A DNA stretch of 52,744 nucleotides from Candidatus Nomurabacteria bacterium (GTDB lineage: Bacteria > Patescibacteriota > Minisyncoccia > Phycocordibacterales > UBA9973). Of the stretch, positions 1,100-45,107 are shown one piece after another. A model generated the notes under the pieces. That model had not been told where the DNA came from, ran no database searches, and saw only the letters and a program-made list of their open reading frames with translations. The first letter of the stretch is position 1. Each line of letters opens with the position of its first letter. The DNA is taken from assembly GCA_026395915.1 (NCBI GenBank), contig JAPLXU010000018.1, forward strand, positions 23,832 through 76,575. The letters are read 5' to 3'. The translations under genes were made by a program, and so were the position numbers.

Positions 1100-3421
1100 C
1101 TATTTCTCTTTCTTCCCCAAACGTTCTTTTAATACTCCAATTTCATCTCGCAATATCGCCGCGGTTTCGAAGTCCAATTCTTTCACAGCCTTATTCATTT
1201 CCTTCTCTTTTATTTTAATTATTTTTTCATAAATAAGATTGCCCCGCTCTTCATCAGACAAAATCTGATTCCATAATTCGGAATTAACTTTCTTGCGTCC
1301 GAGTTTTTCCTCTTGGCTGAGTTCTTTGGAATAAGCTTTCTTGAAAACTTCCAAATCAAGTTTGAGTTCCGCATTTACGATTTTTCCATGCTCGCTTTCC
1401 ATCTCTTCAGTAATATCTTTTATCTTTTTTACTATAGTTTTAGGAGTAATACCGTGTTTTTTGTTATAAGCAAGTTGAATATTTCGACGGCGAGCGGTTT
1501 CTTTTAAAGCGTATTCGATGGCGCTTGTCATGACATCGGCGTATAAAATAACTTTACCTTCGCTGTTCCTCGCGGCGCGACCGATAACTTGAATAAGCGA
1601 CGTTTCAGAACGCAAAAATCCCGCTTTGTCAGCATCCAGAATTCCAATCAAAGCAACTTCAGGCAAATCGAGCCCTTCTCGCAGCAAGTTTACACCAACT
1701 AAAACATCAAATTCGCCTTTTCGAAACTGTGTGAGAATCTTGATTCGTTCCATTGTTTTTATATCACTGTGCAGATACTCCGCTTTTATTTTTTTGTCTT
1801 TCAAATAGACAGAAAGATCTTCCGCCATCTTTTTTGTCAGTGTTGTAGCCAGAATGCGAAAACCTTTTGCGATTGTTTTTTCCGCCTCAGCGATGAAATC
1901 TTGAATTTGGCCGGGAAAAAGCGAGAAGTTTTCTTTTTTGGGTGTCTCGCAAGCCGACGGGCCGAGAGGCAGCGCTGGGACAGCAGTCCCAGACAGCGAC
2001 CCAAAAAAGGAAGACTTATCGCTTTTTCCGAAAATTTTACTTTCAGAAACCGGTCTCACTACGGTCTCCGGATCCACGAGCCCAGTCGGACGAATTATTT
2101 GCTCCACAATTTGTTCGCTCTGCGTTCTTTCTTGTTCGCTCGGAGTCGCGCTGGTGTAAATGACGGAACTGATTCTTTTTTGAAATTCCTCATATTTGAG
2201 AGGCCTGTTGTCTTTTGCTGATGGCAGACGAAAACCGTATTCCACAAGGGTATTTTTGCGAGAAGCATCTCCAGCATACATACCTTGGAGTTGGGGCAGG
2301 GTGACGTGTGATTCGTCGATAATTGTCAAAAAACCTGTCTTTGGAAAATATGAAAGCAACGTTTCTGGCGGTTCCCCTTCCGCTTTCCCAGACAAATGTC
2401 TCGAATAATTTTCAATCCCGTTACAATAACCGATCTCTTTTATCATCGCTAAATCATAATTTGTTCTTCTTTTGATTCTTTCCACTTCTAGCAATTTACC
2501 TTCTTTTTTGAATTTTTTAAGTTGAACTTCTAATTCCTTTTTAATATTCACTAAAGCCTTTTTCTTTTTTTCATCCTCAGTTATAAAGTGTTTGGCAGGA
2601 AAAATAAAAATATTTTTTTCCCCGCCTTCATCGCTATGCCAGCCCGAATCGCTACGCGAAGCGTTGCTGGCGGGCGAAGCATTGCGGGCAGGTTCTTTCA
2701 AAATTTGTGACGAGATTGGATCTATTTTAAGAATTTTTGAAATTACCCCTCCTGATATTTCAACTTGATACATAATAGACTCTGAAACAGGCATGAATTC
2801 CACCCTAGATCCGAGGGAACGAAAACTGCCGGGTGTAAGGTCTGCATTTGTGCGTTCGAAATGTATAGCAATGAGAGATTTCATCAAAGCCATCCTGTCC
2901 ATCTTTTGTCCAACCTCTAATTTAAGATTAACTTTTTCATATTCCTCCGGAGAACCCAAACCATAAATACAAGACACTGAAGCGACTATGATGACGTCAG
3001 GACGAGTGAGAAGAGCTTGAGTGGAAGCATGGCGAAGCATGTCTATCTCTTTGTTGATAGAAGCGTCCTTTTCGATATAAGTATCCGAGGCCGGCATGTA
3101 AGCTTCCGGTTGGTAGTAATCATAGTAAGAAACGAAATAGTGCACAGCAGAATTTGGAAAAAATAATTTAAACTCCTGCGCGAGTTGGGCGGCGAGAGTT
3201 TTATTGTGAGCTATCACCAGGGTCGGTTTGTTGTATTCCGCTATCACGTTTGCCATTGTGAAAGTTTTCCCCGTGCCTGTGGCCCCGAGCAATGTTTGTT
3301 TCTTCATTCCCTTTTTGAGCCCTTCACAGAGCTTCGAAATAGCCGAGGGTTGATCACCGCTTGGCTCCCAAGGCTTGCACAACTTGAAAATATTGGACTT
3401 TTTCTCCTCTCTTTTTAACAT
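1100..3421 (-). CDS. uvrB: Excinuclease ABC subunit B (UvrB), 773 aa, enlarged by two GC-rich insertions
   Basis: GATGTGKTFT Walker A, RPTGLVDP, ATTLTKKMAEDLSVYL, C-terminal UVR-like coiled coil (FETAAILRDEI). ATG start at 3421. Confidence 0.95.
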   Translation of the reverse strand: MLKREEKKSNIFKLCKPWEPSGDQPSAISKLCEGLKKGMKKQTLLGATGTGKTFTMANVIAEYNKPTLVIAHNKTLAAQLAQEFKLFFPNSAVHYFVSYYDYYQPEAYMPASDTYIEKDASINKEIDMLRHASTQALLTRPDVIIVASVSCIYGLGSPEEYEKVNLKLEVGQKMDRMALMKSLIAIHFERTNADLTPGSFRSLGSRVEFMPVSESIMYQVEISGGVISKILKIDPISSQILKEPARNASPASNASRSDSGWHSDEGGEKNIFIFPAKHFITEDEKKKKALVNIKKELEVQLKKFKKEGKLLEVERIKRRTNYDLAMIKEIGYCNGIENYSRHLSGKAEGEPPETLLSYFPKTGFLTIIDESHVTLPQLQGMYAGDASRKNTLVEYGFRLPSAKDNRPLKYEEFQKRISSVIYTSATPSEQERTQSEQIVEQIIRPTGLVDPETVVRPVSESKIFGKSDKSSFFGSLSGTAVPALPLGPSACETPKKENFSLFPGQIQDFIAEAEKTIAKGFRILATTLTKKMAEDLSVYLKDKKIKAEYLHSDIKTMERIKILTQFRKGEFDVLVGVNLLREGLDLPEVALIGILDADKAGFLRSETSLIQVIGRAARNSEGKVILYADVMTSAIEYALKETARRRNIQLAYNKKHGITPKTIVKKIKDITEEMESEHGKIVNAELKLDLEVFKKAYSKELSQEEKLGRKKVNSELWNQILSDEERGNLIYEKIIKIKEKEMNKAVKELDFETAAILRDEIGVLKERLGKKEK
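1912..2046. repeat. ~135-bp nested palindromic insertion in uvrB (63-bp GC-rich core 1940-2002 plus ~30-bp inverted arms)
   Basis: Arms cgggaaaaagcgagaagttttcttttttg (1912-1940) and ccaaaaaaggaagacttatcgctttttccg (2001-2030) are imperfect reverse complements. The core GGGTGTCTCGCAAGCCGACGGGCCGAGAGGCAGCGCTGGGACAGCAGTCCCAGACAGCGACCC recurs in inverted orientation in pcrA. It encodes an extra ~44 aa between VRPV and GQIQDF, the region that lies between conserved UvrB motifs. Confidence 0.8.
2620..2690. repeat. Second GC-rich imperfect palindrome, in-frame in uvrB
   Basis: cccgccttcatcgctatgccagc ... gctggcgggcgaagcattgcggg with ends pairing (GCCAGC/GCTGGC, CCCGC/GCGGG) around a CGCT-acgcga-AGCG centre. 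Translated as PARNASPASNASRSDSGWHSDEGG. Strong local GC excess against AT-rich flanks. Confidence 0.5.
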
Positions 3422-5649: not shown

Positions 5650-8064
5650 CTATTTTACCTCTCCAAAATTGTCTCCGGAACCTGAATGCACTTCAAGTGG
5701 AATATCAGTTTTGTAATGCAAATACGACCTTTCGAGCACGTTTTGCATGGCGTTTTTTATTATTTTTTCAGCTTTTTCCAAAACACCATCCTCTATTTCA
5801 TAAACAAGTTCGTCGTGAATTTGCAAGACGAGATGAGCTTTGTCTAAAAGCTTCCCCTCTTTCAAATCTTCTTCCGTGTATCTGATAGCGAGCTTGATGA
5901 TGTCCGCTGTGGCTGTGCCTTGGATCGGAGCGTTTATCGCTGTTCGTTCTGCCATGTTTTTCAAAAATGGAATTCTGGAATTTATATTTGGAAAATATCT
6001 GCGTCTGCCGAACAAAGTCTCAGTGTAAGAATTTTTCAAGGCAAATCTTTTTACCTCTTCCAAATAATCTCGCACGCCGGAAAATTGATTGAAATAATTG
6101 TCGTAAAATTTTTGCGCTTCCTCGCGAGTACCTCCGAGATTTTTTCGCAGAGATGAAACTCCCATACCGTAAATTATACCGAAATTTATAACTTTCGCTT
6201 TGCGACGCATCTCACTGTCAACTTTATCCAAAGGTACACCAAAAACAAACGAAGCGACTCCGGAATGAATATCTTTTTTCTCGCGAAAGATCTGTGTCAT
6301 CTTTTTATCCCCCGACATCATCGCCGCCACACGCAATTCAATCTGACTATAATCAAAAGCGCAAAGCTTGGAGCCTTTACCCGCAATAAACCCGCCACGA
6401 ATTTTTTTACCCAACTCAGTTTTTATCGGCAAGTTCTGCAAATTCGGATCCTGTGAAGAAAATCTCCCCGTCGTTGTGCCATTTTGTAAAAATTTTGCAT
6501 GGAGTCTGTTGTCCTCGCCTGTCATTTTTGGAATTACATCAATATAAGTGGAAAGTAATTTTTGTAATTCACGATAAGCTAAAATTTCTTTGATTATCGG
6601 ATTTTCTTCCTCCAATTCTTCCAACACAGAAACTTTTGTGGAAAAAGAACCAGAGGCATTTTTCTTTTTACTTGATTTCATACCCATTTTTCCAAACAAT
6701 ACTTCGCCCATTTGTTTAGGAGAATTGATATTGAATTCCGTGCCCGCCATTTTATATATTTTCGAGGTGAGCTTGTCCAGTTCCTCATGATACTCGGCCG
6801 ATAAATTTTTAAAATATTTTTTGTCTATCAAAATTCCATAATCTTCCATTTCTTTCACTGCGCTCATTATTGGGCGTTCAATTTCTGAATATATTTTATC
6901 CAGTTTATTTTCTTTCAGCTGGTCGAAAATATAATCGTAGGCGGTCTCAAAGGAATCCGTGTTTGCAAACAATAAGATATCGCTCAATTGGGGATTTGAA
7001 ATATCGGAATTTATGAGCCAAAGAGCTATGCTAGCTTCTTGAAGCTTGATGGGGGAAGAAAAATTCAGAGAATTTTCTAGTGGTCTGGCCGGGGCGAGGG
7101 GCCCCGGGGAACCGAGGACCCTAGAAAATTCTTCTGGATTTTTCTTCTCTTCCCTTCCAAAGAAATTTTTCAGACGTCCAAACAAACTTCTAAATTCAAA
7201 CTTGGCAAAAACTTGTTCCACTTTTTTCGGATCCACTGTCTCCCAAAAAGTTTTATCCGGCAGAACAAAATCCACGGGCGCGTCTGTTCTGATTTTAGCC
7301 AAGGTTTTTGAAAAAAGCGCTTCCTCTTCGTTGTTTTTTATCAACTCTATCATCCTCTTGCTTATACCGGCCTTTTCAAAAATTTCTTCATCTTTTCTTA
7401 TTTTTTTGTAAATTTCTTCAATAGTTCCAAAAGTTGAAATCAAAATCGTGGCTGTCTTTTCTCCGATGCCTTTGATGCCTTTGATGTTGTCGGACGGATC
7501 TCCGCGCAATCCTTTGTAGTCCGGCAAAAGTTTCGGTTTGAACCCAAAACGATTTACGACTGCGTCCTCGTCATATAAAATTGTGTCATTGATACCTTTT
7601 TTCAAAGTGTAAACCTGCACTTTTTTATCATCTACCAATTGCATCGTGTCCATATCACCCGACGCAATAATTATATTCACATCATTGTTCTTCATTTGCT
7701 CGACTATCGTCCCAATGACATCATCAGCTTCGAAACCCGGACAGTCGTACATGGGAATGCCAAAAGCTTCAAATATAGAGCGAGAATTTTTTAATTGCAT
7801 AATGAGCGCGTCGTCAGCTTTTGCTCGCCCGGCTTTGTATGCGTCATAAGCTTCGTGTCTGAATGTTTTCTGTGGTAAGTCATAACAGGCCACAATAAAG
7901 TCCGGTTTCAAATCTGTAATTATCTTCATCAGCATTGAAGAAAGCCCATACAAAGCGCCCGTCGGTTCGCCCTTGGAAGACAAAAACTCAGGCAAGGCGT
8001 GATAGGCGCGATGGATTATAGCGTGAGAATCGAGCAAAACAAGAGTTCTTGTATCTTTAGGCAT
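5650..8064 (-). CDS. polA: DNA polymerase I (5' nuclease plus polymerase domains), start reassigned to MPKDTRTLVLLDSHAIIHRAYHALP
   Basis: 5'-nuclease N-terminus, motif A DYSQIELRV, motif B RRKAKVINFGIIYG, motif C QIHDELV. The track ORF extends to 8193, but the conserved protein begins at the ATG at 8064-8062. Confidence 0.93.
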   Translation of the reverse strand: MPKDTRTLVLLDSHAIIHRAYHALPEFLSSKGEPTGALYGLSSMLMKIITDLKPDFIVACYDLPQKTFRHEAYDAYKAGRAKADDALIMQLKNSRSIFEAFGIPMYDCPGFEADDVIGTIVEQMKNNDVNIIIASGDMDTMQLVDDKKVQVYTLKKGINDTILYDEDAVVNRFGFKPKLLPDYKGLRGDPSDNIKGIKGIGEKTATILISTFGTIEEIYKKIRKDEEIFEKAGISKRMIELIKNNEEEALFSKTLAKIRTDAPVDFVLPDKTFWETVDPKKVEQVFAKFEFRSLFGRLKNFFGREEKKNPEEFSRVLGSPGPLAPARPLENSLNFSSPIKLQEASIALWLINSDISNPQLSDILLFANTDSFETAYDYIFDQLKENKLDKIYSEIERPIMSAVKEMEDYGILIDKKYFKNLSAEYHEELDKLTSKIYKMAGTEFNINSPKQMGEVLFGKMGMKSSKKKNASGSFSTKVSVLEELEEENPIIKEILAYRELQKLLSTYIDVIPKMTGEDNRLHAKFLQNGTTTGRFSSQDPNLQNLPIKTELGKKIRGGFIAGKGSKLCAFDYSQIELRVAAMMSGDKKMTQIFREKKDIHSGVASFVFGVPLDKVDSEMRRKAKVINFGIIYGMGVSSLRKNLGGTREEAQKFYDNYFNQFSGVRDYLEEVKRFALKNSYTETLFGRRRYFPNINSRIPFLKNMAERTAINAPIQGTATADIIKLAIRYTEEDLKEGKLLDKAHLVLQIHDELVYEIEDGVLEKAEKIIKNAMQNVLERSYLHYKTDIPLEVHSGSGDNFGEVK
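7051..7154. repeat. ~104-bp palindromic insertion in polA (AT-rich inverted arms, GC-rich core)
   Basis: The left arm gggggaagaaaaattcagagaattttctag (7051-7080) is an imperfect reverse complement of ctagaaaattcttctggatttttcttctcttccc (7121-7154). Core: tggtctggccggggcgaggggccccggggaaccgaggacc. Translated as ...PEEFSRVLGSPGPLAPARPLENSLNFSSP... in the linker between the nuclease and polymerase domains. Confidence 0.7.
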
Positions 8065-8100
8065 TGTGTAAATTATACCATTTAAGCTACAATATATAAA

Positions 8101-8858
8101 TGAGCAAGGACTCCCCTTGCTCAAAATTATGTCTAAGAATATAATAGGCAGATGTACAGAAAAACACCATTTGCGGAAAATGAACATTATCATATTTATT
8201 CTCGAGGAGTAGAAAAACGCAAAATATTTTTAAATACGAAAGACTACAACCGTTTTGTTGCCCTCTTGTACATAATGAACCAAACTGATCCATTCAGAAT
8301 GGACAATTTCATGCGCGAAAATAAAAATAATTTAACAAACATTTTCAATGAGGAAAGAAATAAACCTCTCGTGTCAATATTGGGTTATTGTTTAATGCCA
8401 AATCATTTTCATTTGATTTTATACGAACGCACAGAAAATGGAATAAGTAAATTCATGGGCAAGCTCTTAACTGCCTACTCAATGTATTTCAATACAAAAT
8501 ACGAACGAAGTGGTCCCCTTCTGACAAGACCATTCCGATCGGAACATATTAGTAGTGAATCACAATACATGTATATATTTTCTTATATTCATCTCAACCC
8601 ACTCTCAATTATTGATAAAACATGGAAAGAGGATGGCGTGAAAAACAAAAACATGGCAAAAGATTTTTTAGAAAACTATCAATTTTCAAGCTTTCAAGAC
8701 TTTCTCGAAAAAGATCGACCAGAAAAAATAATACTAGATTTTTCGTTAATTCCAGAATATATAAAGAATATGGAATTAGGTTTTAAAACATACGAGCAGT
8801 TATTTCAAGAAAATATCAATGCAAAACAACAGAGTTGAGCAAGGGGAGTCCTTGCTCA
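8101..8858 (+). mobile_element. REP-RAYT-REP unit: Y1/HUH (IS200-like, REP-associated) transposase gene bracketed by perfect inverted 23-nt hairpins
   Basis: 8101-8123 tgagcaaggactccccttgctca and 8836-8858 tgagcaaggggagtccttgctca are exact reverse complements. Each is a 9-bp stem with a 5-nt loop. The right hairpin includes the transposase stop codon. Confidence 0.8.
8152..8838 (+). CDS. REP-associated tyrosine transposase (RAYT) / IS200-like Y1 transposase
   Basis: HUH motif in GYCLMPNHFHLILYE and catalytic-Tyr region YIFSYIHLNPL. 228 aa with an ATG start. Confidence 0.85.
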   Translation: MYRKTPFAENEHYHIYSRGVEKRKIFLNTKDYNRFVALLYIMNQTDPFRMDNFMRENKNNLTNIFNEERNKPLVSILGYCLMPNHFHLILYERTENGISKFMGKLLTAYSMYFNTKYERSGPLLTRPFRSEHISSESQYMYIFSYIHLNPLSIIDKTWKEDGVKNKNMAKDFLENYQFSSFQDFLEKDRPEKIILDFSLIPEYIKNMELGFKTYEQLFQENINAKQQS

Positions 8859-8866
8859 GTTGGGGA

Positions 8867-18344: not shown

Positions 18345-18493
18345 AAAAAAAGCATTAATCTCTAAACAATCCTTTTGAAGCTGGGCTCCAAGAGTAACAA
18401 ATTATTAGAGGATAGCACCAGCGAAGATAAATCTTGCCAGAACGTCCTATGCAAATCCGTATAACCAATGGCTGATTGCTTAGAGATTAATGC
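18345..18493 (-). ncRNA. Candidate ~150-nt structured small RNA (unknown class) closed by a 20-bp stem and followed by a U7 tract
   Basis: Minus-strand GCAUUAAUCUCUAAGCAAUC (18493-18474) pairs with GAUUGUUUAGAGAUUAAUGC (18371-18352): 19 Watson-Crick pairs plus 1 G-U. It is immediately followed by UUUUUUU (18351-18345). Internal hairpins include UUGGAGC-CCA-GCUUCAA and CUGGCAAGAU-UU-AUCUUCGCUGG. It lies in a 369-nt gap between converging/diverging genes. Confidence 0.35.
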
Positions 18494-18568
18494 CTTCTTG
18501 CTCCGCGAACGGTGTAAGTTAGAGTTAAAACCTCTAAAACTATTTTACTACAAAGAAAACTTTTCAAG

Positions 18569-20241: not shown

Positions 20242-20742
20242 ATGAGAATTTTAGGAATCGATCCGGGATTTGAGAGATTGGGCATCGCTGTACTCGATCC
20301 TGCTCTCCGCAAGGAGCGAGGTGAGAAAGATCATTGCGTAGTTTTTTCGGAATGTTTCAAGACTTCCAGCAAGTTGGGTTTTTCTGAACGACTAAACTTG
20401 ATAGGTAAAGAAGTCCACAAAATAATAAAAGAATACAAGCCGGAGATTCTCGCCATCGAGACTTTATTTTTGAACACAAATCAAAAGACGGTGATGCGCG
20501 TCGCTGAAGCGCGCGGAGTTGTGATTTATGAAGCGTCTTCGGCTGGACTCAAAGTCTTTGAAGCTTCCCCGCCCCAGATAAAGATAGCGACGACGGGTTA
20601 CGGCAGAGCGAACAAAGAGCAAATTATGAAAATGGTAAAAATATTGGCCGAAATGGATACTTCCAAAACTTCTGACGACGAACTAGATGCTATAGCGATA
20701 GCTTTGACTGCTTTTGCGCATTTGAAAGTGTTAAAAAAGTAA
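20242..20742 (+). CDS. ruvC: Crossover junction endodeoxyribonuclease RuvC (start reassigned to MRILGIDPG)
   Basis: MRILGIDPGFERLGIAVLD catalytic Asp motif, AIETLF, DELDAIAIALTAF C-terminal acidic motif. Confidence 0.9.
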   Translation: MRILGIDPGFERLGIAVLDPALRKERGEKDHCVVFSECFKTSSKLGFSERLNLIGKEVHKIIKEYKPEILAIETLFLNTNQKTVMRVAEARGVVIYEASSAGLKVFEASPPQIKIATTGYGRANKEQIMKMVKILAEMDTSKTSDDELDAIAIALTAFAHLKVLKK

Positions 20743-20838
20743 AAATATATCAATATCAGCGACTTTCGCAGGCTGGCGAGCCGAGAATGAGCAAATTTTC
20801 AGCAGAAAATTATGCGACGGTGATATTGATATATTTTT
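20741..20838. repeat. 98-bp palindromic element with perfect 18-bp terminal inverted repeats; core shared with the rsmA insertion at 47695-47806
   Basis: AAAAATATATCAATATCA (20741-20758) is the exact reverse complement of TGATATTGATATATTTTT (20821-20838). The internal hairpin AATTTTC-agca-GAAAATT lies within a 19-nt identity (aaattttcagcagaaaatt) to the rsmA element on the opposite strand. The element overlaps the ruvC stop codon by 2 nt. Confidence 0.8.
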
Positions 20839-20848
20839 ACTTTTGGAC

Positions 20849-20937: not shown

Positions 20938-20971
20938 TTTCCGCCAAAGGCGGATCCGCCTTTGGCGGAAA
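20938..20971. repeat. 34-bp perfect palindrome centred on GGATCC
   Basis: TTTCCGCCAAAGGCGGATCCGCCTTTGGCGGAAA. It can form one long hairpin, or two short ones (CCGCC-aaa-GGCGG and CCGCC-ttt-GGCGG). Confidence 0.85.
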
Positions 20972-21129: not shown

Positions 21130-21135
21130 GTGATT

Positions 21136-21168
21136 AAAAAAAACGGAAGCAAGGCTTCCGTTTTTTTT
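21136..21168. terminator. Bidirectional intrinsic terminator (A8-hairpin-T8) shared by the mini-ORF and tyrS
   Basis: aaaaaaaaCGGAAGCaagGCTTCCGtttttttt. The T-run overlaps the tyrS stop codon. Confidence 0.8.
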
Positions 21169-22366
21169 AATCTACTAGGATTTTCACAAACTTTTTTTTG
21201 CCTATTTTGAGTGTCAGATCGCTTGTGATTTTTGCATTCTGGTCAGTTATGTTTTCGTTTTTCTCCAAATCATGCGCGCCGTTCCCTAGAACGAGCCTTC
21301 GCCATTCCCCTTTCGACGATAGAATTTTATTTTTTACCAAGACTTCGCTCAAAAGCTCCCCTGCTTGGCACTTTATTTCTTCCATTTCGTCAGGAATTTC
21401 TTTTTTCTGAAAAGTGTTTGAAAAATTCTCTTCGGCAACTTTAGCGGAGGCCTCGTCGTGAAGTTGTGTGACTATAATAGATGCGACTCGTTTCTTAAGC
21501 GTCATAGCATCTTTTTTAAGATTGAACTTATTGATTTCTTCCATAGGCACATCCGTCAAGAGCGTGAACATTGGAATAATGGCGTCATCTCCTAAAGACA
21601 TAATCTTTCCAAATAATTCGGGGGCTGGATCGGTTAGTCCAACAACATTGCCTTCGCTTTTGCCGATTTTCACGCCTTTAGAATCGGAAAGCAGAGGCGT
21701 CGTCATCACAAATTTCTCTTTGTTTTTCATTGCTCGCATAAGCGTTCGTCCAGCAAGCATATTGAAGGTTTGATCGCTTCCGCCCAATTCAAGATCTACA
21801 TCCATTGCAACCGAATCATAGCCTTGGAGAAGAGGATACAGAAACTCGCGCAAGTTTATAGTCTCACCAGCTTTTAAGCGTTCTTGGAACATGTCTCTTT
21901 CGATTAGCTGTTGAACGGAAAAATTTTGCGCAATGTTAAGAATATCGACTTTGGTTAATTTGTCTAACCAATCGCCGTTGTAAAGTATTTTTATTGGATT
22001 TGGTCCATCAAAACGAACCACTTTGGAAGCTTGAGAGAGGTAGTCTTTTGCATTGACTCGTAATTCTTCTTTCGTAAAAAATTTTTCCCTTGTTTGTTTC
22101 TTTCCTGTCGGATCTCCCGCTGTGCCTGTGCCATCGCCGATCAGAAAAATAACCTCATGACCCAAGTCCTGCCACTGCCTGTGTTTGCGCAAACCAACCA
22201 TGTGACCTATATGAAGTCTGTCTCCTGTCGGATCGAATCCTTGGTAGAGACGAAGTTTTTTGCCAGAGCGCAAGAGCTCTTCTAATTTTTCTTTAGTGGG
22301 ATAAATTCTATCAACTCCTCTCGTAAGTAGTTCTTGAATCTTATCTTCTTTCTTTTCCGTTTTCAT
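21167..22366 (-). CDS. tyrS: Tyrosine--tRNA ligase
   Basis: HIGH motif in GDRLHIGHMVG, KMSKS-like KIGKSEGN, C-terminal S4-like domain. Confidence 0.92.
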   Translation of the reverse strand: MKTEKKEDKIQELLTRGVDRIYPTKEKLEELLRSGKKLRLYQGFDPTGDRLHIGHMVGLRKHRQWQDLGHEVIFLIGDGTGTAGDPTGKKQTREKFFTKEELRVNAKDYLSQASKVVRFDGPNPIKILYNGDWLDKLTKVDILNIAQNFSVQQLIERDMFQERLKAGETINLREFLYPLLQGYDSVAMDVDLELGGSDQTFNMLAGRTLMRAMKNKEKFVMTTPLLSDSKGVKIGKSEGNVVGLTDPAPELFGKIMSLGDDAIIPMFTLLTDVPMEEINKFNLKKDAMTLKKRVASIIVTQLHDEASAKVAEENFSNTFQKKEIPDEMEEIKCQAGELLSEVLVKNKILSSKGEWRRLVLGNGAHDLEKNENITDQNAKITSDLTLKIGKKKFVKILVD

Positions 22367-27787: not shown

Positions 27788-28885
27788 TTACCTATTCATC
27801 GGCATGATGAGATAAAGGAACGATTGGTCGGAAACTGGCGATACAACCAAGGGGCTTGAAGCCCCAGAAAATTTTATAGACACGCTGTCGGTGGTGATTG
27901 ACTGGAAACAATCCAAAAAGTATTTATAATTAAATCCTAGCTCAATATTTTCTCCGGTTATGGCAGCATCTAAATATGTCTTATTTTCTCCAATATCATT
28001 GTTCGCGGATGAAAGTTCAAAAACCTTCTCTTTTGGCGCGATTTTCAGATTTACTTGATTGAATTTGTCTGAGAAGATATTAGAAATTTTGAGCGCATTC
28101 AATAAGTCCTGTTTTAAAACGACTGCGTTTGTTCCGGATGTTTTGGGAATAATTTGGCGATAATCTGGAAAAACTCCGTCAATTACTCGTGAAGTCAGAT
28201 AAATACCGTCTGAAGAGAAAGAGATTTGATTCTTATTGAAACAAACTTTAATAACCGAACTAGACTCCCCAAAGATTCTCAATATCTCGGAAATATTTTT
28301 GAATGGGATAAGTATGCCTCCTATTTCTGGTAGCCCTTTCATTTTGATTTTTTTCTCAGCCAACCTAAAAGAGTCTGTAGAGACGAAAACTAAATTATCC
28401 TCGTTAGTATACATAAACACACTCGAAATCTCTGGCTTAACATCAGAAAAAGAAGAACTGTAATAAACCGATTTTATGCCATCTATAAGTTTTTTTGAAT
28501 CCATCTCAAAAGTCGTTCCTGTTACTCTCGGAATAGTCGGAAAATCGTCGTGCGGTTGACCTTTTAGTTTTATTTTGCTTTTTTTTGTCTGAATTAACAA
28601 ATTACCATCAATACTTTCTAAAAAAACATTCTCGTTTTGAAAAACATTAGAAAAGACACCATTCAAAACTGATCCAGAAATAGCCACAATCCCCTCTTTT
28701 TCTATTTTTGCTGGAATTTCTACTTCAATACCCAAACTTAAATTCGTAGATCGGAGTTTGAGTGATTTACCTGATACAATCAAAAGAATCGAATTTAAAA
28801 TTGGTAGAGTTAAATTTTTACCAGTAATTTTTTCAACTAAGGAAACTTTGGTTTTTATTTCTTCTATTTTGCATTCTAGTTTCAT
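27788..28885 (-). CDS. dnaN: DNA polymerase III beta sliding clamp
   Basis: 365 aa, located immediately downstream of dnaA. Typical N-terminus MKLECKIEEIKTKVSLVEKITGKNLTLPILNSILL and C-terminus LYLIMPMN. Confidence 0.9.
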   Translation of the reverse strand: MKLECKIEEIKTKVSLVEKITGKNLTLPILNSILLIVSGKSLKLRSTNLSLGIEVEIPAKIEKEGIVAISGSVLNGVFSNVFQNENVFLESIDGNLLIQTKKSKIKLKGQPHDDFPTIPRVTGTTFEMDSKKLIDGIKSVYYSSSFSDVKPEISSVFMYTNEDNLVFVSTDSFRLAEKKIKMKGLPEIGGILIPFKNISEILRIFGESSSVIKVCFNKNQISFSSDGIYLTSRVIDGVFPDYRQIIPKTSGTNAVVLKQDLLNALKISNIFSDKFNQVNLKIAPKEKVFELSSANNDIGENKTYLDAAITGENIELGFNYKYFLDCFQSITTDSVSIKFSGASSPLVVSPVSDQSFLYLIMPMNR

Positions 28886-29014
28886 ATGTTTATATTTTTT
28901 ATATTTAAATTATTAATACTATTAGATGCCTTGATAAGTGGATAACTTTTTTTATTTATAATTTATAAGGCTATGGAATAATTTTATTTTTAATTTAAGT
29001 CTAATAACTTTTGA
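28886..29014. promoter_or_regulatory. Very AT-rich dnaA-dnaN spacer with a near-consensus DnaA box; candidate oriC half / DNA-unwinding region
   Basis: AGTGGATAA at 28937-28945 (8/9 match to the TTATCCACA reverse). Long A/T runs such as tttttttatttataatttataa. Classic position between dnaA and dnaN. Confidence 0.45.
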
Positions 29015-30373
29015 TTACTTGAACATGATTCGTATTTGCTCCAATTCTTGTAAAAGTTGTGGGTCGGTTTTCAGATCGTTTTTAATTTTTAGACAAGAGT
29101 GTATGACAGTCGTGTGATCTTTTCCACCGAGTTTCTGCCCGATTAATGGATACGACACATTAAAGTCTTCTCGAAGTAAGAACATCACCACCTGTCTCGC
29201 TTTTACTATCTCTTTTTTTCTTGTTTTTTCATAAACAGACGCCTCTTCTAGTTTATAATATTCGCTTACGACTTTTACAACATCTTTTATGGCCATATTC
29301 CTTTTCGGTTTCATGTTGTTTTTTAGTAAACCTTTCACTTCTGCTAATGTTGGAGGCCTATTTCTTAAGCGATATTGGCAGATTATAGCGTTTAAGCTCC
29401 CTTCGAGCTCTCGGATATTGCCATCTACAGAAGAAGCGACATATTCCAATACTTCTTGATCCAAATTAATATCAAGCTCTTGTAGTTTCACTTTCAAAAT
29501 AGCAAGACGAGACTCATAATCTGGTGGAGAAATGTCCACAATCATGCCGGCGGCAAAACGAGACTTCAAGCGGTCTGCTAATTCGGGTATATAATTCGGA
29601 TGTTTATCAGAGGAAAAAATAATTTGTTTGCTGTTCTCGTGAAAAGTGTTGAATGTGTGGAAAAGTTCTTCCTGAATTTTTTCCATTTTGCCTATGAATT
29701 GAATATCATCAATAATTAAAAGATCATATTTACGATATTTTTCTTTGAAAGAATTTGCTTTATTGCTCTGCAGTGAATTTATAAAGTCGGTCGCGAATTT
29801 TTCCAAAGTCATGTAATGGACTTTTTTATTCGGATATTTTTCTTTAATTGAGTTCCCTACTGCTTGAATTAAGTGAGTTTTGCCAAGTCCCGTGCCTCCG
29901 TAAATAAAGAAAGGATTGTATTTGGTGCCGGGACTGTCGATTATAGCGAGACTTGCGGCGTAAGCGAGCTCGTTGAAAGATCCCACTATGAAGGAATTAA
30001 AATGATAACGAGGGTTCAAGTTGTCCTCTGGATTGATATAAAGGTCTTTTAGGGGTAGTTCTTTGTTTACATAGCTTGTATTTTCCCCTATTCGGATTGG
30101 TTCCAGCTTTGTCGTCTCTACTTTAGTGATCATGTATTCCACTGCGCGCATGTTTTCATAAGCATCCGCTATGGTCTTGGTGATAAGTTTGTGATATTTG
30201 TTTATAAGCCAATCACGCACGAATTCATTTGGCACGCCAATATAAATAATGCCTGTTTCCTCTTTTACAATACATGTGTTTTTAAACCAAGTGCTAAAGT
30301 TTGCTTTTGACATACCCGCCTCGATTTCCACTAAACAATTTTTCCAAAGTTGTTTTATATCCATTAGTTTCAT
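29015..30373 (-). CDS. dnaA: Chromosomal replication initiator protein DnaA
   Basis: Walker A GGTGLGKTHL, Walker B LLIIDDIQF, DnaA-box binding C-terminus GGKDHTTVIHSCLKI. Confidence 0.95.
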   Translation of the reverse strand: MKLMDIKQLWKNCLVEIEAGMSKANFSTWFKNTCIVKEETGIIYIGVPNEFVRDWLINKYHKLITKTIADAYENMRAVEYMITKVETTKLEPIRIGENTSYVNKELPLKDLYINPEDNLNPRYHFNSFIVGSFNELAYAASLAIIDSPGTKYNPFFIYGGTGLGKTHLIQAVGNSIKEKYPNKKVHYMTLEKFATDFINSLQSNKANSFKEKYRKYDLLIIDDIQFIGKMEKIQEELFHTFNTFHENSKQIIFSSDKHPNYIPELADRLKSRFAAGMIVDISPPDYESRLAILKVKLQELDINLDQEVLEYVASSVDGNIRELEGSLNAIICQYRLRNRPPTLAEVKGLLKNNMKPKRNMAIKDVVKVVSEYYKLEEASVYEKTRKKEIVKARQVVMFLLREDFNVSYPLIGQKLGGKDHTTVIHSCLKIKNDLKTDPQLLQELEQIRIMFK

Positions 30374-30421
30374 ATTATACTATTTGCGCAAGTTTTGATA
30401 ATTTTAAAAAGTTATTAAACT

Positions 30422-30442
30422 TGTTGATAAACTGTGGATAAA
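30422..30442. promoter_or_regulatory. Two adjacent DnaA boxes upstream of dnaA (TGTTGATAA, TGTGGATAA)
   Basis: 30434-30442 is a perfect reverse consensus. 30422-30430 has one mismatch. Confidence 0.5.
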
Positions 30443-30446
30443 AATT

Positions 30447-30485
30447 CCCCCCCCCTCCTTTCAGGAGAGGGTAAGGGGTGAGGTG
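30447..30485. repeat. GC-rich palindromic element in the dnaA-rpmH spacer (same subfamily as the jag insertion, opposite orientation)
   Basis: The reverse complement cACCTCACCCCTTaCCCTCTCCTgaaaggagggg matches 32187-32208 aACCTCACCCCTTcCCCTCTCCT at 21 of 22 positions. Confidence 0.7.
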
Positions 30486-30506
30486 TATTTGATTTTTTGC
30501 CAGAAA

Positions 30507-30515
30507 TGTTATAGT
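30507..30515 (+). promoter_or_regulatory. Extended -10 element (TGtTATAGT) 9 nt upstream of the rpmH ATG; implies a near-leaderless mRNA
   Basis: TG at 30507-30508, TATAGT at 30510-30515, ATG at 30525. No SD in between. Confidence 0.3.
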
Positions 30516-30524
30516 ATTGAACGC

Positions 30525-30659
30525 ATGTCATTCACATACAATCCAAAAAAGAGAAAAAGAGCTCGAAGTCACGGTTTTTTGGTTAGATCCAGAATAAAGA
30601 CAGGCAAGAAAGTTCTAAAGAGAAGACGCCAAAAAGGCAGGAAAAAACTCAGTGTTTAG
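30525..30659 (+). CDS. rpmH: 50S ribosomal protein L34
   Basis: Below the ORF-track cut-off. [44 protein letters not shown] is a typical L34, in the canonical position before rnpA. Confidence 0.9.
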
Positions 30660-30671
30660 TCTGGTTTCTTT

Positions 30672-30998
30672 ATGCTTCCTAAAAACAGAAGGGCAAATAA
30701 GAAGGATATTGACTTGCTCTTTAAGAGTGGTAGCTCTGTCAGTTTTCCTAATTTAACTTTTAAATTTATTAAAAGTAGCAAAGATATTCCTTCTCGCATT
30801 TCTTTTATTGCGCCAAAAAACGTTGCCAAGAAGGCGGTAGATAGAAATCGTTTAAGACGTTTGGGATATATTGTGTTAAAAAATCATATTGGCGGCTCCC
30901 CTCTTGGTATTGTTGGCGTTTTTATCTTTAGAAAATACCAAGATGATGTTTCAATACTCGAAAATGAAATTAAAAAAATACTCGATAAGATTAATTGA
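30672..30998 (+). CDS. rnpA: Ribonuclease P protein component
   Basis: 108 aa basic protein in the rpmH-rnpA-yidD-yidC context. Contains KKAVDRNRLRRL (RNR motif). Confidence 0.85.
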   Translation: MLPKNRRANKKDIDLLFKSGSSVSFPNLTFKFIKSSKDIPSRISFIAPKNVAKKAVDRNRLRRLGYIVLKNHIGGSPLGIVGVFIFRKYQDDVSILENEIKKILDKIN

Positions 30999-31980: not shown

Positions 31981-32475
31981 ATGGATAAGCAAGAGATACA
32001 AAATTTAATAAAGGAAATGATTGAAAAGATAGGGGTTGCAATAACAAAGATTGATATTGTTGAAGACGGCCCACATAACACATGGTTTTCAATTGAAGTT
32101 AACGAACCACACTTTTTCTTGGGACGCGAGGGAGAAGCGCTTTACGCTTTGAACCACCTTGTTCGCAGAATAACTGAAGACAAGAACCTCACCCCTTCCC
32201 CTCTCCTTGTTAAGGAAAGGGGTGGAGAGCAGAGCCAAATCCTAATTGATATTAATGGTTTTCAAAAAAAGCGAGTGGAAAATATTCGCGCAATAGCCCA
32301 TATGATGGGAGAGCGAGCCAGATATTTCAAATCAAGCATAGAAGTCGACCCGATGTCAGCCTTCGAACGCAGGATAGTCCACGAGTTTTTATCTAATGAG
32401 ACTGACTTAAAAACCGAATCAACAGGCTTCGGCCCTTCTCGCCGAGTGGTGATAAAGTACGTCGGGAATCTTTAA
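31981..32475 (+). CDS. jag: RNA-binding protein Jag/KhpB (KH plus R3H domains) carrying an in-frame palindromic insertion
   Basis: Canonical position after yidC. R3H motif in SAFERRIVHEFL. Confidence 0.85.
   Translation: MDKQEIQNLIKEMIEKIGVAITKIDIVEDGPHNTWFSIEVNEPHFFLGREGEALYALNHLVRRITEDKNLTPSPLLVKERGGEQSQILIDINGFQKKRVENIRAIAHMMGERARYFKSSIEVDPMSAFERRIVHEFLSNETDLKTESTGFGPSRRVVIKYVGNL
32187..32229. repeat. GC-rich palindromic element in-frame in jag
   Basis: cctcaccccttcccctctccttgttaaggaaaggggtggagag: CTCTCC/GGAGAG and ACCCCTTCC/GGAAAGGGGT pairings. Translated as NLTPSPLLVKERGGEQ. Confidence 0.7.
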
Positions 32476-32578
32476 AATAAAACTTTTTCCGGTACAGATT
32501 TTTTGAAGCTTAAAAAATCCTGAAGTTTGCTCGCCGTCGCTCGCAAAACCCCTTCAAAAGTTTATTTTAAAGATTCCC

Positions 32579-33943
32579 TTATTTAAGAGAAAATTCCCAT
32601 AGATAAGAATCTTTTTTGTTCACAAAAAATAAGTAATTTCCACTGTCGTCTAGAGCAAGTTTTATGCCATCTATTTCTCCCACAGCAATTGTGACTGGAT
32701 CTAGTATCATTGTCCCGTTTCCGGTTTTCACATCTATTTTCCAAATTTGGTCGTTGAAAGACATTTCTCCTTGATACCAAGTATCGGGATATTCTCCTAT
32801 ATTTATTAATTTTGGTACAGCGCAATAAATAGTATCGCTTGCTTTACCCCAAACGCATTTTTCCGGTAGAGTTTTTACTCCTAACACATCGGAATTCCTT
32901 GTGTCTGTGTGATAAATATTGATTGATAAATTGCTGTCGCCATAAAGTATCAGCTTCCCATTAGGGCTTGCAAGTGTGGTCAGTCCGTTTATTTCGCCTA
33001 GAATTTTAGTTAAATTTTTACCCGATCCGTCCATGCTGTATATATACCCCGGAATATTTGCGGAAGGTTTGGTTGAGAGAGTGATGAGGTTGGCAGTTGG
33101 CCAAAGCGATAGCCATTCTGTAAAAGGAGAATCGAATATCTGAGTCTTCTTGTTTGTTAACAAGTTTAGAATCACACCTATCATATCGTCTCCGCTATCA
33201 AACAAGTAAAACACCTTTGAAGTATCTGGCGAGATACTTATATCTTTCACATTATCAGGCAAAAAGTTTCCTTTAATTTCGTTATTTCCTGTCACATCTG
33301 CTCCCAATAACTCTTTCGGAAGGGTTCCAACGAAAGTTTCGATAGTCCTGTCATTTCCTTTTAAATGTCGCATTACGACAGATTCCCCGTGGTTACCGAA
33401 ATATGCATCATGCACTTTAGGTATTATAGTTGAAGAAAATTTTTGCTCTTTTATTTTATCGGCAAAGGTTTGGTAAATATTTCCAGTTGCTATGTCCACA
33501 TATCTCAAAGCCGGCGCGAATTCAGTTGGTGGAGGAGTTGGCTTCTTGGTTTGACCCCCCGAACCCCCCTTAGCAGGGGGGACGCCCTCCCCTGATAAGG
33601 GGAGGGTTGGGGTGGGGTTTGTTATTACCGTTGGAACCTCTTTTAATCTTTCTTTTTGAAAAACTGCAAATCCCGCTATGGGCATACTCGAAATTTTTAT
33701 CAATTTTAACACTGGTGTGTTTGTGACAGGAGGAATATATCCTGAAACATCTACTGGGGGCGTTGTAACTGGAGGCGTCGGCTTGTTGTTGTTTCCGAAT
33801 GGATTGAATTGTGAAAAAAAGTTTGTGCCCCCGCTGTTATCCCCCGGCGCGGTTGTTCCTTTTTGGAAATACAAAAATCCAAAAACGGCGATTACCACGA
33901 GGATTGAGATTATTATTAAAAGTATAAAATTTCTTTTTGACAT
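32579..33943 (-). CDS. Membrane-anchored exported protein with a Pro/Thr-rich linker and PD40/TolB-like beta-propeller-type repeats (last gene of the T4SS-like locus)
   Basis: N-terminal TM FILLIIISILVVIAVFGFLYF, PTPPVTTPPV linker, recurring SPDTSKVFYLF / SPNGKLILYG / DDSGNYLFFV motifs. Confidence 0.6.
   Translation of the reverse strand: MSKRNFILLIIISILVVIAVFGFLYFQKGTTAPGDNSGGTNFFSQFNPFGNNNKPTPPVTTPPVDVSGYIPPVTNTPVLKLIKISSMPIAGFAVFQKERLKEVPTVITNPTPTLPLSGEGVPPAKGGSGGQTKKPTPPPTEFAPALRYVDIATGNIYQTFADKIKEQKFSSTIIPKVHDAYFGNHGESVVMRHLKGNDRTIETFVGTLPKELLGADVTGNNEIKGNFLPDNVKDISISPDTSKVFYLFDSGDDMIGVILNLLTNKKTQIFDSPFTEWLSLWPTANLITLSTKPSANIPGYIYSMDGSGKNLTKILGEINGLTTLASPNGKLILYGDSNLSINIYHTDTRNSDVLGVKTLPEKCVWGKASDTIYCAVPKLINIGEYPDTWYQGEMSFNDQIWKIDVKTGNGTMILDPVTIAVGEIDGIKLALDDSGNYLFFVNKKDSYLWEFSLK
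33553..33619. repeat. Double-hairpin GC-rich palindromic element, in-frame in the 454-aa gene
   Basis: gaCCCCCCgaaCCCCCCttagcaGGGGGGacgCCCTCCCCtgataaGGGGAGGGttggggtGGGGtt. Same two-hairpin plan as 20149-20217. Translated as NPTPTLPLSGEGVPPAKGGSGGQ. Confidence 0.75.
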
Positions 33944-33952
33944 AAGTTAACT

Positions 33953-34927
33953 TTATTTATTTGGAGTCCATTTTCCTCCTGCTGTGACACAAGCGCCTTG
34001 GTAAGTATGTTGTGGGATACTACAAGTTCCTGTTCCAACCGCCCCGGGCAGTACTGGAGTTGTGGTCCATGTTCCTTTACCTGCACAATCTTCTGCTGTT
34101 GTAAATTGAGGAACGCTGCAGACGCCGGAAGTATTTGTTGCTGCAGATTGAATAGCAGGTGAGGTAACTGTTGCAGATGGAGTCCATGTCCCTTTACCTG
34201 CGCAGTCTTCTAATGTTGTGAATTGAGGGATACTGCAAGTGCCTGAAGGTATACTTACGGATACATTTGGCGGATTAATATCAGAGTTTAATAGATCTGG
34301 GTTTATAGTATAAAGGAGAGCATAGGCGCCGAGGGCTATCAAAAGTCCGAAAATTGCTTGCATTATCCTCTCCTTGCCCGCTTCTTTTGTGTGAGAAAGT
34401 TCGCTCGTCATGTATTCTATTCCTCCCACGACTATCATTACTACAGACAAAACCGCGCATAGGCCGATGAATAATTTTATCATTGGGTTTAAATACGCGC
34501 TCAAACCACCTGTGGTGCTGACATTATTGCTGGCATCACCAACATTGGGTAATGGAGCCAAAAGCTGATAAGTTGTATTTGTTGGAGATGTCACTGGTGC
34601 TGCTGGGTTTATGGTTACTGATGTATTTAGATTATTTTGTATTGCTGCTGGTGCTACATCTTGGCTAGCCCTATCTTGTATATAGTGTATTGTGTTAGCA
34701 GCAGCAGTTCTTTGTGCTAATAATTGGTTATATCTTTGTAAGTTTGCTCCTACAGCTGGCCTGCTTGATACAATATCAAATTCTGTTTGAGTTGAAGTTA
34801 TTATTGCTTGTTGAGCAGCTATTTGTGTTATCTCTGTGTCTGTCAGAGCTCGCGCGCTCACTTGTTTTATCGGACTAAAGAGTCCAATCATAACGATAAC
34901 TATTAAAATGTATTTTAGGTATTTCAT
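33953..34927 (-). CDS. T4SS pilin-like protein (VirB2/TrbC-type two-helix core) with long N-terminal region and C-terminal triple Cys-pair repeat
   Basis: Signal peptide MKYLKYILIVIVMIGLFSPIKQVSA. Core IKLFIGLCAVLSVVMIVVGGIEYMTSELSHTKEAGKERIMQAIFGLLIALGAYALLYTI fits the Gram-positive/CPR T4SS-pilin pattern. The C-terminus has 3 copies of C-S-[IV]-P-Q-x-T-x5-C-x2-[AK]-G-x-W-T. Confidence 0.6.
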   Translation of the reverse strand: MKYLKYILIVIVMIGLFSPIKQVSARALTDTEITQIAAQQAIITSTQTEFDIVSSRPAVGANLQRYNQLLAQRTAAANTIHYIQDRASQDVAPAAIQNNLNTSVTINPAAPVTSPTNTTYQLLAPLPNVGDASNNVSTTGGLSAYLNPMIKLFIGLCAVLSVVMIVVGGIEYMTSELSHTKEAGKERIMQAIFGLLIALGAYALLYTINPDLLNSDINPPNVSVSIPSGTCSIPQFTTLEDCAGKGTWTPSATVTSPAIQSAATNTSGVCSVPQFTTAEDCAGKGTWTTTPVLPGAVGTGTCSIPQHTYQGACVTAGGKWTPNK

Positions 34928-34928
34928 T

Positions 34929-35915: not shown

Positions 35916-35927
35916 AGTTTAAGTATA

Positions 35928-37790: not shown

Positions 37791-37803
37791 ATATTAATAG
37801 TTG

Positions 37804-37902
37804 AAAGTTATAAAGTTCATAAAGTTATAAAGTGAATTATACATTAAATTTTTGTTTTTTGATTTTACTTGATAAACTTTCCACTTTAAAACTTTTTACT
37901 TG
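37804..37902. promoter_or_regulatory. Symmetric pentamer array in the 121-nt gap inside the locus: 4x AAAGT then 5x ACTT(T/G) in inverted orientation
   Basis: AAAGT at 37804, 37812, 37821 and 37829. ACTT[T/G] at 37867, 37876, 37883, 37891 and 37898. Spacing is 7-9 nt. Confidence 0.35.
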
Positions 37903-37911
37903 AAGATTAAG

Positions 37912-38550: not shown

Positions 38551-38551
38551 A

Positions 38552-38989: not shown

Positions 38990-38993
38990 AATT

Positions 38994-39650: not shown

Positions 39651-39664
39651 AATATTATTATACC

Positions 39665-40177: not shown

Positions 40178-40183
40178 AAATTT

Positions 40184-42514: not shown

Positions 42515-42568
42515 TATTTTATTTTTACCAACTTTCTACTTTGCGTCCGAAACAGAATTATGTTGTAT

Positions 42569-45058: not shown

Positions 45059-45107
45059 TTTGTTATTTTATTATACCTTGTATCAATCCTGTAGTGAAGC
45101 CCTATTT

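Follow-up and report, generated by a model that had tools for sequence, protein, structure and literature searches.

The palindromic segment at 1914-2029, inside uvrB, is probably a copy of a non-autonomous, structure-defined family of mobile DNA repeats of the Patescibacteria that resembles the Rickettsia palindromic elements (RPEs) in function. Our analysis shows a repeat family, an insertion that is present or absent among close relatives, a secondary structure supported by covariation, and a restricted use of reading frame. We refer to the repeat as family A, and to the whole stretch of DNA analysed (52,744 nucleotides) as the window. The uvrB copy comprises the following features:

1100-3421, minus strand: uvrB, encoding 773 amino acids
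1914-2029, plus strand: family-A element in uvrB (whole palindrome), from its inverted arms, its fold and the covariance model R1
1914-1942: left arm of the outer stem, 29 nt, 86% complementary to its partner at 2001-2029
2001-2029: right arm of the outer stem, partner of 1914-1942
1942-2000, plus strand: conserved three-way-junction core, from alignment A5 (columns 27-85) and pair counts
1952-1963, plus strand: hairpin 1, AGCC-GACG-GGCC
1972-1997, plus strand: hairpin 2, a variable 5-bp stem (GGGAC/GTCCC) with loop AGCA
1916-2044, minus strand: UvrB codons 460-502, with no counterpart in solved UvrB structures

These arms bear out the nested palindrome that the initial annotation had described in this gene. 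Model R1 matches the copy at 1917-2026 on the plus strand (104.6 bits, E 4.5e-25), the folding z-score is -5.8, and the G+C content of the core is 71%, compared with 39% for the whole window. As the core reads in its sense direction on the plus strand, the copy lies antisense to uvrB. On the protein side, residues 460-502 are unmatched in an alignment to the solved UvrB 9gy7_E, and the segment is missing from distant UvrBs as well as from several orthologues at 80-89% identity; it is thus an insertion, as had been proposed, and not an ancestral part of the protein. It is also in frame, stop-free and a multiple of three in length, again as first described. The 45-residue string given in the initial annotation includes about 5 residues of the host linker, and the net gain relative to the closest orthologues without the element is 40 residues (120 nt). 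If translated, the insert would give peptides such as FFGSLSGTAVPALPLGPSACETPK, and its insertion point is in what we take to be the linker joining the two RecA-like domains of UvrB. An AlphaFold2 model of UvrB built from a shallow alignment had a mean pLDDT of 43 and was unusable for loop placement.

A second copy lies in pcrA:

48149-50206, minus strand: pcrA
49053-49168, minus strand: family-A element in pcrA, from its inverted arms, its fold and R1
49082-49140, minus strand: core of the pcrA copy, sense to pcrA
49119-49130, minus strand: hairpin 1
49085-49110, minus strand: hairpin 2, stem CCGCG/CGCGG with loop AACA

Positions 1930-2014 in uvrB and the reverse-complemented stretch 49068-49152 of pcrA align along 85 nt with 79% identity (blastn E = 5e-16), and the local alignment score of 49 lies far outside shuffled expectation (8.5 ± 1.4, maximum 14, in 1000 shuffles). 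The only divergent stretch is an internal hairpin stem that is still paired in both copies, in agreement with the earlier statement that the two genes share a core except for one hairpin. R1 matches the pcrA copy at 49055-49166 on the minus strand (108.8 bits), and its folding z-score is -10.7. In the protein, residues 348-390 (window positions 49037-49165) stand in place of 5 residues of 1pjr, in a loop directly ahead of the 'VLYRxNxQSR' motif, and peptides such as GVSQADEPRGSAPR would be expected if it is translated. Because uvrB and pcrA are both on the minus strand, the two copies are opposite in orientation relative to their host genes.

We searched species-representative genomes for family members using a 21-nt pattern of the hairpin-1 core, which had 3 matches in the window and 0 in shuffles. 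The search recovered at least 117 stretches, almost all from Patescibacteria metagenome-assembled genomes (MAGs); as the pattern required hairpin 1, the apparent breadth of the family depends on that motif. Beyond what the search demanded, 61 of 105 analysable copies also have the remainder of the core. Each element measures about 80-125 bp and has a conserved core of ~59 nt with two small hairpins, enclosed by an outer stem of 15-30 bp that differs in sequence in every copy while keeping its complementarity. Hairpin 1 has the consensus GGCY-GACG-RGCC, and hairpin 2 consists of any 5-bp stem with the loop AGCA. Covariation across the 61 copies supports this structure: 85.5% of cells paired, compared with 65.7% in shuffles (a value reached by 0 of 500), double-sided changes numbered 644 against 233 ± 18, and the covariation score was 0.515 against 0.157, or 0.11-0.23 when partners were slid. 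Hairpin 2 was paired in 99.7% of cases, with up to four pair types per position. Identity between copies was 34% in the outer 18 nt and ~95% in the core, the latter figure being partly a product of the search by construction, and the core is nearly invariant across several candidate phyla. Within genomes, the 5-bp stem of hairpin 2 was shared by four of seven same-genome pairs, compared with about 0.06 expected per pair, and in one of these pairs (L030/L061) the arms were shared as well; this one stem behaves like a lineage 'barcode', and its sharing points to amplification or conversion within genomes.

The family had no match in Rfam at gathering or permissive thresholds (sub-threshold chance hits only), and is not described in the searchable literature. 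A scan of viral contigs returned one high-G+C chance match without the rest of the core, and a search with the encoded peptide, a short query, was nearly empty.

The initial annotation was right that the segment is a repeat but underestimated its scope, as the family spans the Patescibacteria and has sister families in the same window. Three further elements lie in the window:

20735-20844, plus strand: intergenic copy between ruvC and an aminoacyl-tRNA synthetase gene (pattern match 20766-20786; R1 80.9 bits; alignment A3)
32465-32577, minus strand: intergenic element of the same architecture with a weak family match (R1 19.5 bits, E 0.008)
47695-47806, minus strand: related element, family B, in frame in ksgA/rsmA (R1 31.1 bits, E 8e-6)

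The copy at 20735 combines a family-A hairpin 1 with an AT-rich hairpin 2 of the ksgA type; the family-B element has the same layout as family A, and has 23 nt of hairpin 2 in common with that intergenic copy. Several sister families accompany family A in the window, which holds about ten hairpin elements, seven of them intragenic (two in uvrB, two in ksgA, and one each in polA, pcrA and a hypothetical gene). GC skew gave no usable position for the origin, because gene strand dominates the skew.

Open reading frames span 53 of the 105 copies, in both orientations, with hosts that include PcrA/UvrD, UvrB, TGT, TsaD, Fmt, RecG, Dus, a class-I aminoacyl-tRNA synthetase and a pseudouridine synthase. 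Where the frame is at least 250 amino acids long, all 22 sense copies are read as '..GVSQADGPRGSA..DSDP', and 17 of the 19 antisense copies as '..GSLS..ALPLGSSACETP'. These frame statistics suggest that the element is translated. The orientation of the core relative to the host gene varies even at a single pcrA site; that the core is found in either orientation points to the DNA level and not to the mRNA level. GC-rich copies, mostly labelled Kaiserbacteria, are sited between real genes, for example between rpsN and rpsH or between an ABC ATPase and its permease, and a leader-peptide or small-ORF reading of them was rejected on this ground.

The uvrB site itself is polymorphic. Of 23 UvrBs at 80-89% identity, 4 have an empty site, 1 has a short insert, 6 carry family A and 12 carry other families; these states are distributed patchily over the tree, and at least five element families occupy the same codon position among close relatives. 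Between orthologous uvrB copies, identity is 93-100% in the core, 62-85% in the arms and 20-60% in the hairpin-2 stem, against 44-50% at the four-fold degenerate sites of these genes; the core is thus constrained beyond synonymous sites. One orthologous copy (L120) was located through the protein and not through the pattern, which makes this check unbiased. Pairing is kept even where the stem extends into host codons. No target-site duplication is visible at ORF copies; overall, the longest direct repeat is 3.5 nt compared with 3.2 nt in shuffles, an excess owed to the conserved GCGAG flank of one subfamily. The GC-rich intergenic copies mostly labelled Kaiserbacteria have flanks of the form ..AGCGAG / CGAGCG.., with possible direct repeats of 4-9 bp.

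One may postulate, though we consider it unlikely, that Y1/HUH transposases (RAYT or IS200-like) mobilise the folded hairpins, in a REPIN-like system adapted to open reading frames. Such enzymes recognise structure with little sequence, and the window encodes a candidate:

8152-8838: RAYT-like Y1 gene with the HUH motif NHFHL and a YIHLNP motif

This gene has inverted flanking hairpins in the classical RAYT layout, its homologues each have their own short flanking hairpin, whose apex is conserved and whose stem varies, and at one homologous locus (L092) the flanking hairpin also occurs in frame within the RAYT ORF. The hairpin flanking the gene in the window is not family A, however, and occurs nowhere else in the window; family-A arms, moreover, are no conserved REP units. 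No family-A copy was found in 80 homologous RAYT loci (about 310 kb of CPR contigs), and a RAYT lies within 4 kb at only 3 of the 117 family-A loci and is adjacent at none. Because its 80 homologous loci lack a family-A core, we reject RAYT as an established partner; no transposase or other partner linked to the family was found, nor does the window contain a parent IS with the same ends.

Another interpretation, to which we assign a low probability, is that the core is a nucleic-acid signal beneficial to the host (a binding site or structural punctuation, in DNA or RNA) that is selected locus by locus, with its spread incidental. The near-identity of the core in orthologous copies despite nearly saturated synonymous sites, its near-invariance across candidate phyla, and the pairing retained within host codons would all fit this interpretation; strong core conservation in old, vertically inherited copies is unlike a decaying selfish insertion and would fit a host-level function too. 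Against it, the core has no fixed orientation, and it sits in spacers as well as in ORFs and in genes unrelated to one another; close relatives lack the element at the same site or carry other families there; the core is absent from the same 310 kb of other CPR contigs; and there is no Rfam match.

It is highly improbable that the segment goes untranslated, being spliced out or bypassed by the ribosome in the manner of the 'byp' elements of yeast mitochondria, which are hairpins that the ribosome bypasses. The mRNA hairpin would be very stable (-59 to -78 kcal/mol), but removal or bypass would need neither the frame, nor freedom from stops, nor a single frame per orientation, and of the 41 copies in long ORFs 39 conform to exactly these restrictions; the net length is a multiple of three; and as both orientations occur, there is no single RNA sequence common to the copies. 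Lastly, the reading of the segment as an ancestral part of UvrB, a chance similarity or a local template-switch palindrome, in favour of which there is nothing beyond family A at the same UvrB site in five relatives, is refuted by the solved UvrBs and four close orthologues without it, by the same core in more than ten unrelated gene families and many genomes, and by shuffles that never come near the observed score.

The mobile-repeat interpretation that we favour would entail the following course of events. Family copies would have landed in the UvrB inter-domain linker and the PcrA loop, and genic copies would survive only if their length keeps the frame, no stops arise and the core falls in a permitted frame; this frame, one per orientation, would give a peptide rich in Gly, Ser, Pro, Ala and Asp, and translation of the surviving copies would presumably yield a surface loop. 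Following insertion, the stems may drift, with complementarity kept by selection on the hairpin or by templated (quasipalindrome) correction, and the constancy of the core may reflect selection for recognition, gene conversion between copies, or both. The most likely route of spread would be as folded single-stranded DNA, whose junction core is recognised by a structure-specific enzyme acting in trans.

RPEs are repeats of ~100-150 bp with palindromic ends that form several families, occur in frame in housekeeping genes and in intergenic regions, encode a characteristic peptide for each family, and have no known transposase (in part after PMC10969869). Family A likewise is a repeat in the ~100-150 bp range with palindromic ends and many copies that lies in frame within unrelated protein-coding genes and encodes a conserved peptide. 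The resemblance to RPEs that the initial annotation had noted holds as an analogy and not as membership, since the terminal arms of family A change from one copy to the next and conservation is confined to the three-way-junction core at the centre, which inverts the pattern of a normal repeat consensus. The hosts also differ (Patescibacteria here, Alphaproteobacteria for RPEs), as do the hairpin-stem 'barcode' and the occurrence of different families at one codon position. Judged from host and composition, with RPEs compared by description, sequence homology to an RPE consensus seems unlikely.

Other known repeats show partial likenesses. REPs and REPINs are hairpin-forming repeats recognised by shape, and the RAYT-like gene with its inverted flanking hairpins, together with the in-frame hairpin at L092, recalls them; REPIN arms are two conserved inverted REP units, however, whereas family A has unconserved arms and a conserved branched centre, REPs are extragenic whereas half of family A is intragenic, and the RAYT gene is neither flanked by the dispersed family-A repeat nor associated by locus with it. 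Like the MITEs Correia, ERIC, BOX and Nezha, family A is non-autonomous, foldable, of similar size and occasionally fused in frame, but MITEs are defined by conserved terminal inverted repeats, target-site duplications and a parent IS; the terminal inverted repeats of family A are not conserved between copies, its ORF copies show no target-site duplication, and the window contains no parent IS. The family is not a classical MITE, REP or REPIN. Integron attC sites are recognised as folded single strands of 57-141 nt, with conserved structure, largely free sequence and a variable terminal structure that is sometimes branched. Family A resembles them in length range and in structure conserved over largely free sequence, but lacks the R and L boxes (RYYYAAC / GTTRRRY), has variable ends and no cassette array or integrase context, and has copies within essential or core genes. 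The GC clusters and hairpin elements of fungal and sponge mitochondria are GC-rich repeats that invade AT-rich genomes, coding regions included, as family A does; these are organellar, however, and share neither sequence nor the branched conserved core. No curated covariance-model family in Rfam is matched by the element.

We give somewhat less than even credence to a broader interpretation, in which these repeats constitute an undescribed class of mobile DNA in Patescibacteria, specified by a branched hairpin and not by terminal repeats, routinely inserted in frame at recurrent hot spots of essential genes, with families replacing one another and with dedicated recognition or conversion machinery that keeps it functional and is not of a known transposase type; if this is true, lineage-specific insertions in CPR proteins would stem in large part from this class. 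CPR genomes are tiny and streamlined, and yet the window carries about ten hairpin elements. The repeats inflate protein lengths, can break MAG alignments and gene calls, and could serve as lineage markers. The combination of a constant core with free, covarying stems offers a handle for finding the recognising protein, possibly a structure-specific DNA enzyme of a new kind. Should translation occur, the elements would be a general means of giving conserved enzymes new loops across a large part of the bacterial tree.

The uvrB and pcrA genes each carry a copy of family A, a GC-rich hairpin repeat in which a three-way-junction core of ~59 nt (hairpins 1 and 2) lies within a variable outer stem.

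Features of the window, with scores of matches to the family A covariance model
1100-3421, minus strand: uvrB
uvrB copy: match, 104.6 bits
2615-2701: second uvrB insertion (UvrB residues 241-269), in-frame, structured, 64% G+C
2620-2699: structured GC island in uvrB
7055-7147: match in polA, 19.9 bits
8152-8838, plus strand: Y1/HUH transposase-like ORF, similar to REP-associated tyrosine transposases (RAYT-like); Pfam Y1_Tnp 34.9 bits, above the cut-off
20735-20844: intergenic match, 80.9 bits
32465-32577: match, 19.5 bits
33531-33625: structured GC island
47295-47380: structured GC island in ksgA
47695-47806: match in ksgA, 31.1 bits
48149-50206, minus strand: pcrA
pcrA copy: match, 108.8 bits

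The uvrB core (71% G+C, compared with 39% for the window) is enclosed by arms of 29 nt each at 1914-1942 and 2001-2029, which are 86% complementary. Positions 1930-2014 match the reverse complement of 49068-49152 in pcrA over 85 nt at 79% identity (blastn E 5e-16), and the core similarity proposed in the initial annotation is borne out by a local score of 49, far above the 8.5 ± 1.4 of 1000 shuffles. In the predicted fold of both copies, a long stem closes a three-way junction bearing two small hairpins (folding z-scores of -5.8 for uvrB and -10.7 for pcrA); the two copies diverge in sequence in the outer stem and in one of the inner hairpins, with pairing kept in both.

The extra UvrB segment had also been read as an insertion, and this reading holds: residues 460-502 have no counterpart in the aligned solved UvrB 9gy7_E, and the segment is absent from 4 of 22 close homologues. 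PcrA residues 348-390 stand in place of five residues of 1pjr. On the basis of known UvrB structures we place the UvrB site where the two RecA-like domains meet, the model predicted in this analysis being too poor for placing it. Among the 22 homologues (80-89% identical and, judging by their names, from Paceibacterota and Nomurabacteria), the interval from 'RPVSE' to 'YPGQIQ' comprises only 4 residues in four and 8 residues in one, holds family A in five, and holds other inserts in the remaining 12; these belong to four or more additional families, and the window's ksgA contains two of them. The empty allele has the DNA sequence ..GTGAGTGAAAAAAACAAATACAAAGGTCAA.., relative to which the window's uvrB has a net gain of 120 nt. 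A tree built from gap-free alignment columns, and hence free of all inserts, shows a patchy distribution of site states, with different families in sister sequences.

The UvrB alignment shows two hot spots (columns 397-437 and 549-600), occupied in most close relatives by differing element families, with family A in both orientations, as well as about six further, rarer insertion sites. The second insertion in the window's uvrB encodes ..EPARNASPASNASRSDSGWHSDEGGEK.., which is missing in 9gy7_E and most close relatives and partly common to the homologue P0033. Two in-frame palindromic elements are also found in ksgA/rsmA (47295-47380 and 47694-47807, with peptides LEEYPLGGGGNASTPSRERATPQEGN and ERTLGSCDGNEQRKFSAENFCGESE), and their families recur at the UvrB hot spot elsewhere (P0006/P0055 and P0010/P0024). 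The polA element, a GC-rich palindrome that keeps the reading frame, separates the 5'-3' exonuclease domain from the polymerase domain and resembles the 'GLAGVGDPGNRGPEQK' family at the UvrB hot spot of P0002, P0033 and P0034.

The hairpin-1 search pattern, TCGCARGCYGRCGRGCCGAGA, matched the window three times (1947, 20766 and 49115) and shuffled sequence never. With one genome per species, at least 117 stretches matched, nearly all in MAGs whose records label them Paceibacterota, Nomura-, Kaiser-, Harrison- or Doudnabacteria, Minisyncoccia, Parcubacteria or 'Saccharibacteria'; two of the matches listed look like chance. The rest of the core, GT[GC]TC..GAGAG[GT][CG]AGCGCT-N5-N4-N5-AGACAGCGAC, was not imposed by the search and is also present in 61 of 105 analysable copies, while other copies combine the same hairpin 1 with an AT-rich hairpin 2, as in the window's intergenic copy. 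A group of GC-rich intergenic copies (loci L008, L015, L018, L030, L042, L050, L053, L089, L097, L100, L114 and others), labelled mostly Kaiserbacteria and also Parcubacteria, 'Saccharibacteria' or simply bacterium, has additional conserved flanks, ~25 nt ending ..AGCGAG on the left and CGAGCG.. on the right, with possible direct repeats of 4-9 bp; often such a copy directly precedes a start codon inside an operon. No target-site duplication was seen at ORF copies.

In a gap-free alignment of the 61 copies, 85.5% of cells pair compared with 65.7% in shuffles (none of 500 reached 85.5%), double-sided changes number 644 against 233 ± 18, and covariation scores 0.515, where shuffles give 0.157 and slid partners 0.11-0.23. 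Hairpin 2 is 99.7% paired across 29 distinct 5-bp stems, its loop is AGCA in 48 of the 61 copies, and identity between copies is 34% over the outer 18 nt. Hence the sequence of the stems is free, but their pairing is fixed. As invariance of the core columns is partly by construction, orthologous uvrB copies from the window, L044 and L120 (the last found via protein) served as an independent check: the core is 93-100% identical, the arms 62-85% and the hairpin-2 stem 20-60%, compared with 44-50% at four-fold degenerate sites of the same genes.

ORFs span 53 of the 105 copies (32 sense and 21 antisense, by core orientation relative to the host gene), and 51 are not spanned. Where the ORF is 250 aa or longer, every one of the 22 sense copies reads as ..GVSQADGPRGSA..DSDP.. 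and 17 of 19 antisense copies as ..GSLS..ALPLGSSACETP..; most of the remaining frames are also open, though their products would be rich in Arg and Cys. This frame use is consistent with selection on a translated peptide. Among the hosts are PcrA/UvrD (at least two sites), UvrB (two sites), TGT, TsaD, Fmt, RecG, Dus, a class-I aaRS, a pseudouridine synthase and a ComEA-like protein. At one pcrA site the core occurs in either orientation depending on the genome, and could have been flipped by recombination between the inverted arms.

The best NCBIfam match of the RAYT-like ORF is REP-associated tyrosine transposase, below cut-off. Within 8098-8861, inverted 21-nt hairpins, GAGCAAGG-N5-CCTTGCTC (8102-8122 and 8837-8857), border the gene and have no other occurrence in the window; the gene itself shares ~40 nt with the start of polA. 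At least ~580 relatives were confirmed in metagenome contigs; because family A is absent from all 80 loci kept, each of which has its own short flanking hairpin, a RAYT partnership with family A is unsupported. Even so, the likeliest kind of partner is still an enzyme of the Y1/HUH type. At L092, the flanking REP-like hairpin also lies in frame (2194-2225) within the RAYT ORF (1999-2748), encoding ..KTSRQGGSLTGK...

Several other structures occur in the window: a strongly folding, GC-rich two-hairpin segment at 33531-33625 within the hypothetical ORF 32579-33943, a strongly folding 154-nt intergenic palindrome upstream of ruvB (18346-18499), a perfect 34-nt palindrome (20938-20971), and a 27-nt terminator-like hairpin, AAAAAACGGAAGCAAGGCTTCCGTTTT, after an aaRS gene (21132-21172) and again in the 3' end of ksgA (47179-47205). 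A type IV secretion-like cluster (32579-46058, minus strand) encodes TraG/VirB4-like ATPase, pilin-like, PrgI-like and several large hypothetical proteins. The stretch 27788-30672 is probably the replication origin region, given the 130-bp spacer of 15% G+C (28886-29014) between dnaN and dnaA (minus strand) and the divergence of yidC and jag on their other side. The six best family matches lie on the plus strand left of this spacer and on the minus strand right of it, a post hoc pattern expected by chance ~3% of the time; L091 carries both orientations 1 kb apart.

Family A lacks defining features of classical MITEs, REP/REPIN elements and attC sites, and has no match in Rfam. The likeness to Rickettsia palindromic elements initially suggested stands as a functional resemblance. 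Insertions already known in CPR are in rRNA genes, and we found no CPR description of this element in the literature; as coverage of the searchable literature was incomplete, its novelty is probable rather than certain. Four of seven same-genome pairs have a common hairpin-2 stem (expectation ~0.06 per pair), and one of the pairs, L030/L061, shares arm sequence too, whereas hairpin 2 differs between orthologous copies in different genomes. The pattern is consistent with copies being amplified, or undergoing gene conversion, inside each genome, together with constraint on the core across genomes.
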